51,146 nucleotides of DNA from Nitrospiraceae bacterium (GTDB lineage Bacteria; Nitrospirota; Nitrospiria; Nitrospirales; UBA2166), in the NCBI GenBank assembly GCA_002726235.1, contig PBSN01000008.1:510635-561780 (forward strand), written 5' to 3'. Every line of letters starts with the position of its first letter. The first letter of the stretch is position 1. A program made the position numbers and the translations under genes. The notes below the pieces were generated by a model. That model made no database searches, was not told where the DNA came from, and worked only from the letters and a program-made list of their open reading frames with translations. Below are positions 40,548 through 46,728 of the stretch, piece after piece.

Positions 40548-41614
40548 CTTCCCCCTGAAGTTAATCCAAAGGTCTTAGAAATACCAAAGATAATTCCCCA
40601 GCTCGGAACAAGATTGCTTTCATTGACGCGTTGATAAACAGGAATTTGCCCAAAGGCATACAATTGAGTTGTCGGATTGGGCTGCAACCGAACCCCAGGA
40701 GTGAGATTGACCCACTCCCCTCCGGTCCCATCGACGGCTTGCCCAAGAAATTTATCATGAGGTTGGTAGCGAGCATTCACCTGGCCACTGAGATTGAGAT
40801 ACGGCAAAACCTGATATCCTAATCCGGCATTGAGTAACGTAATATTCCCAAACAAATAGTCACGGCTATTTTCAGTATTAACCTGCTGCGAGCCAGAGAA
40901 AAACGCATCAAGCTGATGTGGGAAAATCTGATACGAATAAAACATACTTGCCAAACCATCGAACGACCCGGTTCCCGGCATAAGCGTAGGCTCATTAATC
41001 GAACCAAAAGAATCTCTGAGGTTATATTCTCCGGTGGGAAACTTTATCCCAAGTCCTCCCACCAAAAGATGCTTAGTGGTCGTCAGCAAATTATATTTTC
41101 CAATCACCCGCACATCCCCAAACCCATCCGTCCCGTCAGATCGGAAAAAGGTCCCTTCCGGATCCGATGCGTTAATCCCATCGTAGTGTTCATGAATCCG
41201 TTGATTAAAGAACGGAACAGCGAGTTGTACGGTAAAGTCAGTCGTTACCCCATAACTAAGATCAAACTGAGCTAGGTTATTGAGCGTCGTAACTTCGCGA
41301 TGATGATCAGGCTCAATAAAGTTTTCTTCGAAATTGACTTTAGGCGTGAAGACTTGATCAATGTGTTGGGTTCCCCGCTGCCCACGATCCATATCCACGT
41401 GCCGAAAAGAGAGATCAGCAACAAACTGTCCTTGTGGAGATAATCCCTCTTGCGTTCCAGTGACCAAGAAGCAATTCGATCCACCACAACTGGCGAAACC
41501 TGTCGCTACCCAGAGCAAAAAGATCCCTGGAACCACGACGAGCAAAGAGGCGAGAGGGATGATCAACCCTCTCGCCCAAACTCGACTTCTACTTTTCTCT
41601 ATCAACAGTTCCAA
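40544..41614 (-). CDS. Putative outer-membrane beta-barrel transporter with N-terminal CxxxxC (probable TTG start 41614)
   Basis: Signal peptide then SCGGSNC; GFGDVRV, GLGIKFPTG, PGTGSFD, LTPGVR, QIPVYQRVN; amphipathic strands; GGAGGGG 6 nt before the TTG. Confidence 0.75.
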   Translation of the reverse strand: MELLIEKSRSRVWARGLIIPLASLLVVVPGIFLLWVATGFASCGGSNCFLVTGTQEGLSPQGQFVADLSFRHVDMDRGQRGTQHIDQVFTPKVNFEENFIEPDHHREVTTLNNLAQFDLSYGVTTDFTVQLAVPFFNQRIHEHYDGINASDPEGTFFRSDGTDGFGDVRVIGKYNLLTTTKHLLVGGLGIKFPTGEYNLRDSFGSINEPTLMPGTGSFDGLASMFYSYQIFPHQLDAFFSGSQQVNTENSRDYLFGNITLLNAGLGYQVLPYLNLSGQVNARYQPHDKFLGQAVDGTGGEWVNLTPGVRLQPNPTTQLYAFGQIPVYQRVNESNLVPSWGIIFGISKTFGLTSGGR

Positions 41615-42290
41615 AGAGCACCCCTCCAAAGTGGACGCGTGCGTTCTTCGGTGTTGGCGTTCCCTGAATAAACTGAGTGTTGGTGATTGCTTCGGGATTA
41701 GTATCAAACCAAATCGCGATATGCGCAGGATTCAGCCCACCTCCACCGCTGAGAATAATTTCCACTGACTCTGGAGCCCCCAAACCAAACTGCTCGTTTC
41801 CATTGGACGAGATAATCGCGTCTCCGAGCACATGAAGTGTTTCTCCATCCACATTTATGACTTCTCCACTCTCCATTGAGATCTGCATCGCATGCCAGTT
41901 GCGCAGCGTTCCGCCTCCAAGTAGCCCTGCAGTTGGTTCCGACGACCTCACCATGGAAAGATTCGCCTCAAAACTTTTGAGCGCTTCAGCGGCTTGGTCA
42001 ACTTTTAACTTCCAGGCTCCTTGCAAAACCCATGGTCCAGGTGGTGCGGTATGCGTCTCTTGAAGACGCGCACTTCCAGTGGGAAGACCTGGTTGCGTGA
42101 TGTGAAAGATTGAACCCTTAAACATCGTCGACGACTCAGAGATATGGTCATGGTCGCTATCAGCATCATGGTCAGCTTCCTGGGCAAACGTGGATGAAAC
42201 TCCCATCATCGATACCGAGTGCATATACAGTCCGTAGAACGCAATGACCGCGAAAAACGCAATCAAACCTACTTTCGTCACGAATTTCAT
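41589..42290 (-). CDS. Uncharacterised secreted His-containing protein (paralogue of 45803-46453)
   Basis: SD AGGAGG; signal/TM segment; DHDADSDHDH; FHITQPG, RNWH, NARVHFG. Confidence 0.85.
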   Translation of the reverse strand: MKFVTKVGLIAFFAVIAFYGLYMHSVSMMGVSSTFAQEADHDADSDHDHISESSTMFKGSIFHITQPGLPTGSARLQETHTAPPGPWVLQGAWKLKVDQAAEALKSFEANLSMVRSSEPTAGLLGGGTLRNWHAMQISMESGEVINVDGETLHVLGDAIISSNGNEQFGLGAPESVEIILSGGGGLNPAHIAIWFDTNPEAITNTQFIQGTPTPKNARVHFGGVLFGTVDREK

Positions 42291-42338
42291 TGCAAAATCC
42301 TCCTATCAACAACCAGCGTTCGACACAAATATCAGGAC

Positions 42339-42380
42339 AAAAAAGGTGCAGTCTCAGCCGTACACACCCACTGAGCACCC
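42339..42380 (-). terminator. Intrinsic terminator-like attenuator hairpin between leader ORF and operon
   Basis: Minus strand GGTG-CTCAG...CTGAG-ACTG-CACC followed by TTTTTT. Confidence 0.6.
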
Positions 42381-42424
42381 CACATGCAAAGACGCACGGA
42401 CAGTCTTCAACTGTGGACGCTCAG
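42371..42424 (-). promoter_or_regulatory. Putative antiterminator helix
   Basis: Minus strand CTGAGCGTCCACA (42424-42412) pairs with TGTGGGGTGCTCAG (42384-42371): 13 bp including 2 GU and a 1-nt bulge; it consumes the 5' arm of the terminator. Confidence 0.55.
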
Positions 42425-42431
42425 ACCAAGA

Positions 42432-42749
42432 CTACATGGCAACGTAGAGGAAAAGCGGCGGAGCGCGGGGTTGAAAATGCTGAGGAAGATCACCAGGAAG
42501 GAGGGGGGCTGGTTCAGAGGCAACAACCTCCCCTGCTGTGAAGGAAACGGTGAGCACATTTTTCTCTGGGCCCACAAACGACGAGGCAGCACACATCCAA
42601 ACACACCCAAGCGTGGAATGAACCGCCGCATGGTCTGTGTCACCTTGATGCGCATGGCCCACAACACCGACGGGGCCGGCCGACGCAAGAGCAAATAGCA
42701 ATACGACAACCGACTGTGCAATGGGTTTTAGAAATCGAGGCTGCATCAT
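42432..42749 (-). CDS. DUF2946/CruR/CutF-like leader protein with RAPP arrest motif
   Basis: 105 aa: hydrophobic N-terminus, HAH...H...H, CVWMC (C49, C53), Pro-rich linker, RAPP at 95-98; first gene of the operon. Confidence 0.8.
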   Translation of the reverse strand: MMQPRFLKPIAQSVVVLLFALASAGPVGVVGHAHQGDTDHAAVHSTLGCVWMCAASSFVGPEKNVLTVSFTAGEVVASEPAPLLPGDLPQHFQPRAPPLFLYVAM

Positions 42750-42768
42750 ATCTTCACCCTAGCTCACG

Positions 42769-42797
42769 ATAGTATAGTCAAAAATCTGTGAAATCAA
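42769..42797 (-). promoter_or_regulatory. Putative sigma70 promoter TTGATT-N17-TACTAT
   Basis: -35 at 42797-42792 and -10 at 42774-42769 with 17-nt spacer, upstream of the leader ORF. Confidence 0.5.
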
Positions 42798-42890
42798 GTA
42801 TCATGCCTCACAAAACCTTGTGCCGCGTATTATGTGGAAAGGTGGAGAACGTGTGTATCGGCAGAAACATGGCATCCGGGAAAGGAAATA

Positions 42891-43949
42891 ATGTCCTACC
42901 AGACTGACGACGTTCGCATCTGCGAAATTAAAGAGCTGTTACCACCGATAGCGTTGCTCGAGAGGTTTCCGCTCACGGAGAACGCATCAAAAACCGCCTT
43001 TGAAACCCGCCAGGCGATCCACCGATTACTCCGAGGAGAGGATGATCGCGTCTTGGTCATTGCTGGCCCCTGTTCAATTCACGACCACAAGGCTGCGAGG
43101 GAATACGGAGCAAAACTGGCGACCATACGCGACAAGCTTCGCGATTCCATTGAGATCATTATGCGAGTCTATTTTGAGAAACCACGCACAACAGTTGGAT
43201 GGAAAGGCCTGATCAACGATCCATATCTCGATAACAGTTTTCATATCAACGATGGTCTAAGAATTGCTCGTAGCCTCCTTCTCGATCTCAACGAAATGGG
43301 GATGCCAACGGCCGGTGAGTTTCTCGACACGATTACACCACAGTATGTTGGCGATGTAATGAGCTGGGGCGCTATCGGAGCCCGCACGACTGAATCACAA
43401 GTCCATCGCGAGATGGCATCTGGCCTCTCATGCCCTGTTGGGTTCAAAAATGGGACGGACGGAACGGTAAAGGTAGCTATTGATGCGATTGGAGCGGCCA
43501 ATGCTCCTCACCACTTTTTGTCGGTCACGAAATACGGGCACTCTGCCATTGTGTCTACTGCTGGCAATCCAGATTGCCACATCATCCTGCGGGGAGGCAA
43601 AGAGCCAAACTATGATGCGACCCATATCAAAGAAGTCACGGAGATGCTAACCAAAGCAGGTCTCCCCCACAAAGTCATGATTGATTTCAGTCACGCCAAC
43701 AGCAGCAAGCAGTTCAACAAGCAACGTGAAGTGTGTGATGACGTCTGTGGCCAAATCCGTAATGGTGAGCTTGCAATCTTTGGCGTAATGATTGAAAGCC
43801 ACCTCATCGAAGGCCGACAGGACCTGGTGAATGAAAAACTCCCAGTATACGGTCAGAGTATCACTGATGCATGTATGGGTTGGGAAAGCACCGAGACACT
43901 CCTGCATCAACTCGCGGAGGCCGTCACGGCACGTCGACAGAACGCCTGA
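42891..43949 (+). CDS. aroG: DAHP synthase, class I-alpha (AroG-like)
   Basis: MSYQTDDVRI, GPCSIHD, RVYFEKPRTTVGWKGLINDP, IGARTTESQVHRE, DFSHANS, YGQSITDAC; AAAGGA SD before ATG 42891. Confidence 0.95.
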   Translation: MSYQTDDVRICEIKELLPPIALLERFPLTENASKTAFETRQAIHRLLRGEDDRVLVIAGPCSIHDHKAAREYGAKLATIRDKLRDSIEIIMRVYFEKPRTTVGWKGLINDPYLDNSFHINDGLRIARSLLLDLNEMGMPTAGEFLDTITPQYVGDVMSWGAIGARTTESQVHREMASGLSCPVGFKNGTDGTVKVAIDAIGAANAPHHFLSVTKYGHSAIVSTAGNPDCHIILRGGKEPNYDATHIKEVTEMLTKAGLPHKVMIDFSHANSSKQFNKQREVCDDVCGQIRNGELAIFGVMIESHLIEGRQDLVNEKLPVYGQSITDACMGWESTETLLHQLAEAVTARRQNA

Positions 43950-44157: not shown

Positions 44158-44514
44158 TCAATGGCCGGCATCATGGCCGCGTTGAGCTTCGTGGGAATCA
44201 TGCTCCCCCAGGGGAACTACATGAATTTTGCTCGCGATCATACCACTGCCTCGCTTGGACTTGATGAGATCAATGGTAACCACTTGGCCAGCTTTGAGAT
44301 CCCCGTACCCCGTCACATCCAACCCCACAACCTTCGTCGACAGCGACACTTTTAGATCCATCAAGACTCCATCGTGTTGTTCTAGCGTCAACTTTGGACC
44401 ATTAACCTCTGTAATCGTCCCACTCACCTGATTCTCGGTTCCAAAAACATGCACGGCAGTTATTGCAAAGATGAATAGAATGAAGAAACTGGTTAAAGAA
44501 ATACGCCGTAGCAT
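44158..44514 (-). CDS. Small secreted OB-fold-like protein with His-rich tail
   Basis: Signal peptide; GTITEV...DLKAGQVVTI pattern; C-terminus EHDSHEAQRGHDAGH; SD GGAGG. Confidence 0.75.
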   Translation of the reverse strand: MLRRISLTSFFILFIFAITAVHVFGTENQVSGTITEVNGPKLTLEQHDGVLMDLKVSLSTKVVGLDVTGYGDLKAGQVVTIDLIKSKRGSGMIASKIHVVPLGEHDSHEAQRGHDAGH

Positions 44515-44601: not shown

Positions 44602-45525
44602 TCACTGATCCAAGCCAACCGCACGCATAGCACCTGCAGAATTCTCAGCATTCGTATTGACTTCAAGAACGCTGGCATCATTGTGTGCATGAATAGCAAT
44701 CGTGTAGGGACCACTTCCACTCGTCGGCAGTACGACAAGATCAATTGCCACAGGGGCGTCAACATCCGCAACCTCGATCGAGCATCGCTCTATCGATTCA
44801 AATCCATCACAGACTTGCAGAATCTCTGCTTCCTCAACAGCAACAAACATAAGATCAAAGTCAAGATCTTTTCCGTGAGTGAGGGTACTGTCGAAAACAA
44901 GACTTTCCTTCACGAAAAACCGGTAGCGATCGATATCAGCACGAACTTCCTCTGTACCCGTCGCCTCAATCTCACCCAGTAGCGACGCACAGTAATGCTG
45001 TTTGAGCTTCCCGGCTCGTACCGCAACTCCTTCCTCATCATTTGGCTCATCCTCACGAAGAAAAAGATCCGACACACATTCAGGGCGTCCGATCTTTTGA
45101 ACAAGCACCAGTGATTGATCACCAGTTTGAAATACCTCGCGTGCAGTCCCAATGGTAATAATCGCGAACTTTCCTTCCAATTCTTTTAATTGCTTTACCT
45201 TCAACTTTGTAAGAACCGGCATTCCAATCATGTCCGGTCCTCGCTCATAGTCACTAATGGTATCCTCTGCGAGAAAGCGATCTCCATGCTCCAAAGTCTG
45301 GTCATCCGACAACCAGAGCGCTACCGGCCGGGGATCATCAGACCCAATATCATTCGCGAGAACATGGACAACCAGGACATCTCCTTTCTTCGCAACTTTG
45401 TGTTTCATCTTTATGACCACCCCCGGCACCATTTCTTCCTCGGCAATCGTAGGAGTCGAAAACGCAACGCACACGCTGAAGGCAATGCAAAAACAAAGGA
45501 ATCTATTACGCATCACAATGCTCAT
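44602..45525 (-). CDS. Hypothetical secreted acidic protein (possible Ig-like plus PPC-like domains)
   Basis: Signal peptide; LWLSDD...GDRFL; EDEPND...DIDRYRF...DFDL...GPYTI. Confidence 0.7.
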   Translation of the reverse strand: MSIVMRNRFLCFCIAFSVCVAFSTPTIAEEEMVPGVVIKMKHKVAKKGDVLVVHVLANDIGSDDPRPVALWLSDDQTLEHGDRFLAEDTISDYERGPDMIGMPVLTKLKVKQLKELEGKFAIITIGTAREVFQTGDQSLVLVQKIGRPECVSDLFLREDEPNDEEGVAVRAGKLKQHYCASLLGEIEATGTEEVRADIDRYRFFVKESLVFDSTLTHGKDLDFDLMFVAVEEAEILQVCDGFESIERCSIEVADVDAPVAIDLVVLPTSGSGPYTIAIHAHNDASVLEVNTNAENSAGAMRAVGLDQ

Positions 45526-45802: not shown

Positions 45803-46453
45803 TCATTCAGCAACTGTAATCTTCTGAACCATCCCAAGAATGAGTTCTCCAAAGTGCTCTCGGGCGTTCTGTGCTTCACTTGCAGTGTCTTCACTCGTTG
45901 AGAAGTTCGTGACGGTATCCTGTTCGGTCACAAACCGAATTTCGAGATTGGTCATTCCCTTGAACCCCCTCCCGCCGGTCAATAGTATTTCAACATCATC
46001 ACCCAAAAATTGCTGTTTGCCATTCTTCATGGTGTCCATTGTTCCAGTAATTCGGCCAAACCCGGTCTGAAAGTTCAAGCTGCGGACTTTGCCGTCTCGA
46101 AACAGCAGCTGTACCGTGTGAGTATTCCGCGTAGCATTACCATGCATATCCTTCGGCAACGGATTATCCCCTTCCACAGTGCGAAGCATAATCATATTGT
46201 GCTTCCACTGCGTAACTGCGAGGAAATCCGGATCGATTTCCATGCGCCATGAGCCCGATAACATCCACTGTCCAGGGGGGACCGTATCATCAGCAAACTC
46301 CTCATCGAGCGAACGTCCCGGTTGCGTGATGTGAAAGATTTTTCCTGTAAATGTAATACGGCCATTGGCTTGCGCATCAGCGATGAACCCTTCGTGCAGT
46401 GCACCAATCACAATACACAGACACACAAAAACACGAACTAACCGGTTACACAT
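45803..46453 (-). CDS. Uncharacterised secreted protein (paralogue of 41589-42290)
   Basis: GGAGGT SD before ATG 46453; signal peptide; FHITQPG, RNTH, NAREHFG. Confidence 0.85.
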   Translation of the reverse strand: MCNRLVRVFVCLCIVIGALHEGFIADAQANGRITFTGKIFHITQPGRSLDEEFADDTVPPGQWMLSGSWRMEIDPDFLAVTQWKHNMIMLRTVEGDNPLPKDMHGNATRNTHTVQLLFRDGKVRSLNFQTGFGRITGTMDTMKNGKQQFLGDDVEILLTGGRGFKGMTNLEIRFVTEQDTVTNFSTSEDTASEAQNAREHFGELILGMVQKITVAE

Positions 46454-46728
46454 CGAAAAAACACCTCCAAACGCCACATCCACAATCCGCAGTCAATTTA
46501 ACCACCCTCCCTAAGCGAAATGTCAACCGGAATTATACAAAAAATCTGCCGTGAGCGTGAGAGCGGCTAGAATGCCATTTCATGATATGACATCAATCAT
46601 AGTCAAGCCTCGCACGCATAGGACTCATTTGATTTGAAATGCCCCATTGATACATCTACGAAACCTCAGATCATCATATCGCGTTGAGGCTACATTACAC
46701 TCAATAGAACCAGTGATGTAAACTACTA

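Follow-up and report, generated by a model that had tools for sequence, protein, structure and literature searches.

A conserved RAPP arrest-type leader in Nitrospirales, related to CruR and CutF and possibly coupled to Rho-dependent termination

CruR (Bp2923) of Bordetella pertussis, the prototype of the DUF2946 family, is an upstream open reading frame (uORF). It is the first gene of its operon, carries an export signal and a CXXC motif and, at a 45-residue spacing (kept to within 1-2 residues), a RAPP sequence 3 residues before the end; behind it comes a spacer of 162 nt, and it exerts control by Rho-dependent termination (PMC9426467). The Rho-utilisation (rut) site of cruR lies in a C>G bubble that starts within cruR itself, and AhpC_TSA genes are recorded among the partners of cruR homologues (PMC9426467). 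Arrest of CruR at RAPP has been demonstrated, the Pro-Pro pair then occupying the P and A sites of the ribosome, and small RAPP/RGPP uORFs upstream of metal genes have been surveyed in 52,895 genomes (PMC12992588). In CutF of Rhodobacter capsulatus, which has a signal peptide and a CxxxC motif, a proline-rich stall opens a stem-loop over the Shine-Dalgarno (SD) sequence of the next gene (PMC9973294; bioRxiv 10.1101/2025.02.05.636593). Here, a leader related to these is described in a stretch of 51,146 nucleotides from a Nitrospiraceae bacterium (contig PBSN01000008.1 of assembly GCA_002726235.1, positions 510,635 to 561,780 of the forward strand), which is called the window below. The leader is a small open reading frame (ORF) at the head of an operon on the minus strand, and its parts are as follows, in the order in which they are transcribed.

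42797-42792 and 42776-42771, minus strand: promoter-like block, TTGATT and TATACT with a 15-nt spacer between them, from reading of the sequence.
42749-42432, minus strand: the leader ORF, 105 aa with the stop included, from the ORF list.
42713-42669, minus strand: hydrophobic amino-terminal segment, about residues 13-27, after two basic residues, from the translation.
42656-42618, minus strand: His cluster H32, H34, H40 and H44, invariant in 13 of 13 aligned sequences.
42605-42591, minus strand: CVWMC, a CxxxC sequence (C49 and C53, both invariant) and candidate metal-binding motif.
42520-42443, minus strand: C-rich, G-poor tract (36 C and 11 G in 78 nt), a candidate Rho-utilisation site by base composition.
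42467-42456, minus strand: the RAPP arrest codons CGC GCT CCG CCG (R95-A96-P97-P98), invariant in 13 of 13.
42434-42432, minus strand: TAG stop, 7 codons past RAPP, from reading of the sequence.
42304-42299 and 42290-42288, minus strand: SD sequence AGGAGG and ATG start codon of gene 1, from reading of the sequence.

The ORF, its hydrophobic segment, His cluster, CVWMC motif, RAPP codons and stop are all found where a first-pass annotation, made from the letters of the window, had put them, and the promoter it had claimed upstream of the leader corresponds to the TTGATT and TATACT elements. The 15-nt spacer between these is short, and a consensus promoter scan, which requires 16-18 nt, does not list them. 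The block to which they belong (CTTGAT...TTTTT.A.TATA) is the best-conserved non-coding block of the leader locus, with CTTGAT, TTTTT and TATA invariant in all five orthologous upstream regions. The hydrophobic segment is a probable Sec signal or membrane anchor. The Pro-Pro pair is located 8-9 residues from the carboxy-terminus, and the spacer between the leader stop and the start of gene 1 measures 141 nt. No Rfam family was found at E ≤ 1 in a search of 41800-43000. In both runs of a metatranscriptome sample (X1 and X2), contigs cover the leader at 42484-42663, with word depths of 7 and 4.7, and X1 alone has a contig over 41864-42153 of gene 1, at depth 2; no contig of either run spans the spacer between leader and gene 1, and such contigs, which show neither ends nor levels, may include DNA carry-over.

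A homologue search over 5.8 billion proteins gave 19 candidates and 13 matches, the window protein itself included. The 12 homologues have identities of 52-75%, and in the resulting 13-sequence alignment all four histidines, C49, C53 and R95-A96-P97-P98 are invariant. Of 401 genomes sampled from the phylum, 96 are matched by a profile made from the leader alignment; nearly all of these belong to the same order, Nitrospirales, with matches in 60 of the 75 genomes of one family (f2) and 27 of the 40 of another (f3). The single leader sequence, searched against genome contigs, gave no match; the other genome searches, including that with the profile, did match. Leader ORFs were recognised by a pattern (fewer than 260 aa, with CxxC or CxxxC and with R[A/G]PP among the final 16 residues), which identifies 36 of them in 31 of 35 loci; L016, L017, L019 and L026, with no ORF fitting the pattern, are left out of all counts of 36 given here. 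A metagenome scan yielded three usable loci, two of which are identical to sequences already in the set, while L012 and L013 were dropped as too distant. All 36 leaders contain CxxxC, which is separated from R[A/G]PP by 41 residues in 35 of them and by 42 in the remaining one, and in all 36 R[A/G]PP lies 1-10 residues before the stop. In every case the leader precedes the other genes of its locus and shares their strand.

The Pfam family DUF2946 (PF11162) matches the window leader with E 0.02 and 16.1 bits, under its gathering cut-off of 23.7. Similar sub-threshold matches occur in 4 of the 13 close homologues and in 11 of 23 wider Nitrospirales leaders, none of them above the cut-off, and most of the matches align through the carboxy-terminal end of the model. 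On this pattern of invariant residues the leader is genuine and conserved, far beyond what chance would give. Its motifs, its sub-threshold DUF2946 match and its place at the head of an operon agree with the kinship to CruR and CutF that the first-pass annotation had proposed, and by these features it can be added, as a new member, to the CruR/CutF class of arrest-peptide uORFs that sense metals, which is known from the literature. More precisely, it is part of what, from the shared motifs, is a Nitrospirales-wide subfamily (His cluster, CxWMC, 41 residues, R[A/G]PP) missed by the Pfam threshold. Two more family leaders, ending in RAPPSLSYQS and RGPPIFTIT before their stops, are seen at the two ends of locus L008 (G004:C98), in the genome of a relative; behind the former, the gene-1-like frame seems to be broken across frames, by a frameshift or an assembly error.

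The carboxy-terminal end of the window leader is unusual within the family. In 12 of 12 homologues the stop is located 3 codons past RAPP, compared to 7 in the window, where a TAC codon stands at the position of the TAA stop of the closest relative, which makes the ORF longer by four codons. Part of the RNA of these four extra codons, CGUUGC (42444-42439, within UAC GUU GCC), pairs with GCAAUG (42293-42288); this pairing consists of 6 bp, includes the start codon of gene 1 and is present in both the minimum-free-energy and the centroid folds.

The C-rich, G-poor tract covers the last 26 codons of the leader, those of RAPP included, and has the highest value of (C-G)/78 in the whole 51-kb window, on both strands. 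Among the 36 leaders, 30 have a corresponding tract that ranks in the 98th percentile of the locus or higher. Because codons for proline and leucine force C, synonymous sites were examined, with expected counts derived from local codon usage (about 3 kb per locus). Within the last 30 codons, taken over all 36 leaders, third-position G is found 193 times versus 293 expected (z = -7.6), and third-position C 376 times versus 375.6 expected. In the amino-terminal, metal-binding part of the same leaders, third-position G amounts to 400 observed versus 395 expected. A rho gene is present in this genome (695 bits, above cut-off). The rut site of cruR was mapped to just such a place, an unstructured C-rich, G-poor tract that begins within the uORF (PMC9426467). 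The statement in the first-pass annotation that CruR acts through Rho-dependent termination is correct (PMC9426467), and the features conserved here point in that direction too.

We therefore favour a CruR-like, Rho-dependent attenuation, in which the hairpin of this strain, described below, is at most a pause or auxiliary stop, and we give this reading about an even chance. The nascent leader chain would be exported by way of its amino-terminal hydrophobic segment and would present the four invariant histidines and the CxxxC motif, 41 residues from R-A-P-P. The ribosome would stall with the two proline codons in its P and A sites, and the persistence of the stall would depend on binding of a metal to the nascent chain, most likely copper in view of the Cys and His ligands and the operon partners. 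The stalled ribosome would occupy the 3' end of the C-rich, G-poor tract and, as long as the stall lasted, transcription would continue into the operon. Upon release of the stall and departure of the ribosome, Rho would load onto the C-rich tract and terminate transcription within the 141-nt spacer, where the hairpin and T6 may mark the place at which the polymerase pauses or stops, or may add an intrinsic terminator. What is shown here is the ORF with its conservation, the motifs with their spacing, the conserved C-rich, G-poor tract and the presence of rho; that the ribosome stalls, which metal is bound, in which direction the response goes and what Rho does are things that we infer.

Several observations weigh against this mechanism. 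The C-richness is partly forced by a Pro- and Leu-rich peptide and only the G depletion is independent of the peptide; the 36 leaders are kin, so that z = -7.6 overstates the signal, although the two halves of these genes clearly differ from each other in this respect. A G-poor RNA could also reflect selection for a lack of structure, or for anti-SD sequence. The leader itself falls under the DUF2946 threshold and differs from CruR in having CxxxC and not CXXC, at 41 and not 45 residues. A purely Rho-based model needs neither the presence of a hairpin with T6 nor its stall-dependence in folding, and both are seen here. Finally, terminator-like hairpins are found within 150 nt past the stop in 7 of the 36 leaders, versus 1.6 expected from shuffles (5 versus 0.43 at a threshold of -12 kcal/mol), and some members may use intrinsic termination. 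Except for the one in the window, all of these hairpins have poor U-runs, and two of them are the same sequence.

The RNA elements behind the stop in this strain are the following.

42424-42412, minus strand: CTGAGCGTCCACA, 5' strand of the proposed antiterminator, 7 nt past the stop, from the local fold.
42384-42371, minus strand: TGTGGGGTGCTCAG, the shared strand, which is both the 3' strand of the antiterminator and the 5' arm of the hairpin, from the local fold.
42379-42345, minus strand: terminator-like hairpin, followed by T6 at 42344-42339, from the local fold and the lax hairpin scan.

From these elements the first-pass annotation had proposed a trp-style switch: a stall at RAPP would keep the terminator arms sequestered and give read-through, while a ribosome at the stop would let the hairpin and T6 terminate transcription. 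The two helices and the hairpin with T6 do exist at the places named for them, and both helices form in local folds; they exclude each other because they share a strand. Together with the inner hairpins between its strands, the antiterminator has a folding energy of -24.1 kcal/mol, while that of the hairpin, which directly abuts T6, is -13.9 kcal/mol, or -15.5 kcal/mol with one more G:U pair. The stem of the hairpin has 10 pairs and is interrupted by a 4-nt bulge; its loop region, of 11 nt, contains one isolated pair. A consensus terminator scan lists 0 sites and overlooks the hairpin because its loop exceeds the 3-8 limit of the scan. A laxer scan of the 51-kb window, covering about 102 kb when both strands are counted, gives 15 sites where a hairpin is followed by a U-run, or 0.147 per kb, and therefore a chance expectation of about 2% for one 141-nt spacer. 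Several of the scan sites (37390-37350, 43670-43635 and 45094-45066 among them) fall inside coding regions of the ORF list; the rarity of such sites and these positions suggest that the genome makes little use of canonical intrinsic terminators.

Switching was assessed from equilibrium ensemble probabilities for the RNA 42475-42345, with the leading edge of the ribosome varied. The terminator helix has a probability of 0.001 when the ribosome is stalled at RAPP (leading edge at about 42446), 0.63-0.87 when it is at the stop and covers the RNA to 42423-42418, and 0.44 when no ribosome is present. The switch is strengthened by a third helix: in the stalled state the stop-codon region pairs with the hairpin's 3' arm, and the antiterminator holds the 5' arm. 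In this strain, the helices are a thermodynamically coherent switch, and an independent metagenome contig (L009) has a sequence identical to that of the window. The behaviour expected upon masking the nucleotides after the stop is thus obtained here, but with a qualification: with the edge at 42425 the probability is 0.013, and the fold flips only when at least 9-10 nt past the stop are covered. The idea that a ribosome at the stop covers the CTGAG sequence likewise stands for this strain, marginally, and fails for the homologues. There the stop is 12 nt further upstream and a terminating ribosome would therefore end about 10 nt before reaching the helix; even so, the motifs of the leader are invariant. 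In addition, formation of the antiterminator leaves a hairpin of -7 kcal/mol next to the U-run, and dinucleotide shuffles of the whole 186-nt region are as stable as the region itself (z = -0.07).

When the loci of relatives are compared, the elements of the switch are not kept. No hairpin with a U-run is present in the closest relative, L002, whose gene 1 is 85% identical, nor in L003 or L008. L002 retains the 5' part of the spacer and has CCCCCAGATTCTTTC at the place of TGCACCTTTTTT in the window. Weaker hairpins, at non-homologous positions and with broken U-runs (TTCTTTAA and TTGTTTGT tails), are found in L004 and L011. In an alignment of five orthologues, antiterminator pairing is possible in 63% of cells versus 57.5% in shuffled controls (26 of 500 shuffles are as high) and terminator pairing in 61% versus 59% (202 of 500 as high); a covariation test of both helices thus gives pair counts no better than those of the controls, although with five spacers it has little power. 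The trp-style switch is not supported as the mechanism of the family, with the T6 hairpin not kept, pairing equal to shuffles and the stop at a different position; judged from the alignments, the attenuator is a property of the sequence of this strain alone. Intrinsic attenuation in this strain is an unlikely explanation of the locus, its low chance expectation, its coherent folding and the enrichment of hairpins behind family leaders notwithstanding. We are similarly doubtful about its evolutionary form, a DUF2946-like RAPP leader that would have been rewired in this lineage from Rho-dependent control to a three-helix intrinsic attenuator, by means of the 4-codon extension and a new hairpin with T6, so that the metal-dependent stall of a secreted nascent chain would itself choose the antiterminator or the terminator. 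In the part of the literature that was searched, no paper was found that couples a DUF2946, CruR or CutF leader to an intrinsic terminator.

Translational control like that of CutF would require the stall to expose the ribosome-binding site of gene 1, either by melting of a stem-loop or by covering a long-range anti-SD sequence, UUCCUCU (42452-42446), in the C/U-rich codons that follow RAPP. Besides the CutF precedent itself (PMC9973294; bioRxiv 10.1101/2025.02.05.636593), it is consistent with the finding that all five orthologues can form a duplex between leader tail and SD region, with energies of -7.9 to -11.4 kcal/mol, each duplex being within the better 6-19% of same-length windows of its own locus. 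Taken singly, none of these duplexes is unusual (background fractions 0.056-0.194), and the SD pairing probability of 0.29 is close to the 0.275 of shuffled sequences, with a fraction of 0.45-0.75 of the shuffles at or below the observed value in the five loci. The SD sequence is also about 140 nt away from the stall site, while the CutF authors consider stem-loop melting to be restricted to short spacers (PMC9973294). A CutF-like translational device is not indicated here, and we rate this explanation as quite improbable. It is very improbable that there is no cis-regulation at all and that the product of the ORF is simply a small exported protein that binds metal, chaperone or metallophore-like, with helices that arose by chance: an early view of CutF saw it as a chaperone (cited in PMC9426467), the whole region is of ordinary stability and the helices are not conserved, but the fixed placement of R[A/G]PP relative to CxxxC and to the stop in all 36 leaders, their invariable position upstream and on the same strand, the restriction of synonymous G depletion to the tail, and the under-representation of RAPP in proteomes save in small, secreted, carboxy-terminal contexts (PMC12992588) all argue otherwise.

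Downstream of the leader, the following genes are found.

42290-41589, minus strand: gene 1, 233 aa, with a signal or anchor helix, a His/Asp-rich linker and an 8-stranded beta-barrel, from a structure model.
41566-40544, minus strand: gene 2, outer-membrane channel-like, with SCGGSNCF after its signal peptide; its start is uncertain (TTG at 41566 or GTG at 41536).
40547-40017, minus strand: gene 3, an AhpC/TSA redoxin (TlpA-like, thiol-disulfide; PF00578, E 4.9e-27).
40016-38634, minus strand: gene 4, a YVTN-type beta-propeller, from a family search.
38532-35989, minus strand: gene 5, a fused protein like the major facilitator superfamily (MFS) and spermidine synthase (NF037959, 111 bits; PF01564).

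The operon context thus consists of the 141-nt spacer, an AhpC/TSA redoxin on the same strand and a MetA-like channel as conserved partner. The model of the gene 1 protein (predicted local distance difference test, pLDDT, 82.2) has an amino-terminal helix, a disordered linker rich in His and Asp and an 8-stranded up-and-down barrel, for which VIA-align finds its best fold matches among 8-stranded barrels, membrane as well as soluble (Z 10-11). Searches against Pfam and NCBIfam assign the protein to no family, Foldseek gives no match at E ≤ 0.001, and as a query gene 1 is found in the genus of the window only, in 4 of 41 genomes. The gene 2 protein has a language-model feature score of 0.98 to clusters carrying PF13557 (Phenol_MetA_deg), with no direct Pfam hit. 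In L011 and about a dozen Nitrospirales loci this gene is located directly behind the leader, and the MetA-like channel is therefore probably the ancestral target, as far as gene order tells. The sequence S-C-G-x-x-x-C-F is conserved after the signal peptide of the MetA-like proteins in L020, L021, L027, L037, L039, L040 and others, and suggests a predicted metal site or a disulfide at the mouth of the channel.

A paralogue of gene 1 (226 aa, 35% identity) is located at 45803-46483 on the minus strand, 3.5 kb upstream. The leader pattern search at the paralogue locus (L005) gave no RAPP leader ORF. The arrangement of leader locus and paralogue recurs in genome G004, with L007 and L002 on one contig, and the paralogue is noted with L006 and L007. 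Between the two barrel paralogues, two secreted proteins without Pfam families are encoded (44158-44514 and 44602-45525, both minus strand), one of which, of 118 aa, has a His-rich tail, HDSHEAQRGHDAGH; both could also belong to the metal-handling genes of this island.

With this leader, metal-sensing arrest leaders of the CruR/CutF type are extended to Nitrospirales, an order that includes nitrite oxidisers and comammox bacteria, whose metabolism depends on the supply of copper and iron. The subfamily is linked to an unannotated MetA-like outer-membrane channel that has a CxxxC motif of its own. Depletion of G at synonymous sites, limited to the stall-proximal tail, is a signature that could be used for predicting Rho-coupled leaders elsewhere, and the window and L002 form a natural pair for asking how the coupling device behind an arrest peptide evolves. 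If true, the three-helix attenuator would give the CruR/CutF class its first member with an intrinsic terminator, and would show a change of coupling mechanism caught in the course of evolution.

Leaders of the trp type and antibiotic-responsive leaders such as vmlR are ribosome-mediated intrinsic attenuators, in which the position of the stall picks the antiterminator or the terminator, a logic that the RNA of this strain could support. The known elements are conserved with their terminators, however, whereas here a proper U-run terminator is present in one of six close loci. ApdA and ApdP, which monitor protein localisation, are also small secreted or membrane proteins that end in a carboxy-terminal RAPP or RGPP sequence and are encoded upstream of their presumed targets; unlike these, the window leader carries metal ligands. 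With CutF it shares a length of less than 150 aa, probably a Sec-type amino-terminus, the CxxxC motif and a Pro-Pro pair within 15 residues of the carboxy-terminus. The stall of CutF is proline-rich and dependent on elongation factor P, and its stem-loop shields the cutO SD sequence across a short spacer; the locus described here has a 141-nt spacer, SD shielding that is not above shuffles and no multicopper oxidase downstream.

When compared to CruR, the leader is again different in score (16.1 bits against the 23.7 of the DUF2946 cut-off) and in its Cys motif, to which four invariant histidines are added, and the distance to RAPP is shorter (41 instead of 45 residues). It has 7 residues past RAPP instead of 3, and its host belongs to Nitrospirales instead of Proteobacteria. 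Downstream, an 8-stranded barrel and a MetA-like channel take the place of a TonB-dependent receptor, and the spacer contains a hairpin with T6. The general organisation is nevertheless alike. Both leaders are the small first gene of a metal operon, with an amino-terminal export signal, which is a probable one here, and a Cys motif at a fixed distance from a carboxy-terminal RAPP sequence. Each has a long spacer behind it (162 nt for CruR, 141 nt here), a C>G tract beginning towards the 3' end of the ORF, and AhpC_TSA genes as operon partners, with Rho present.

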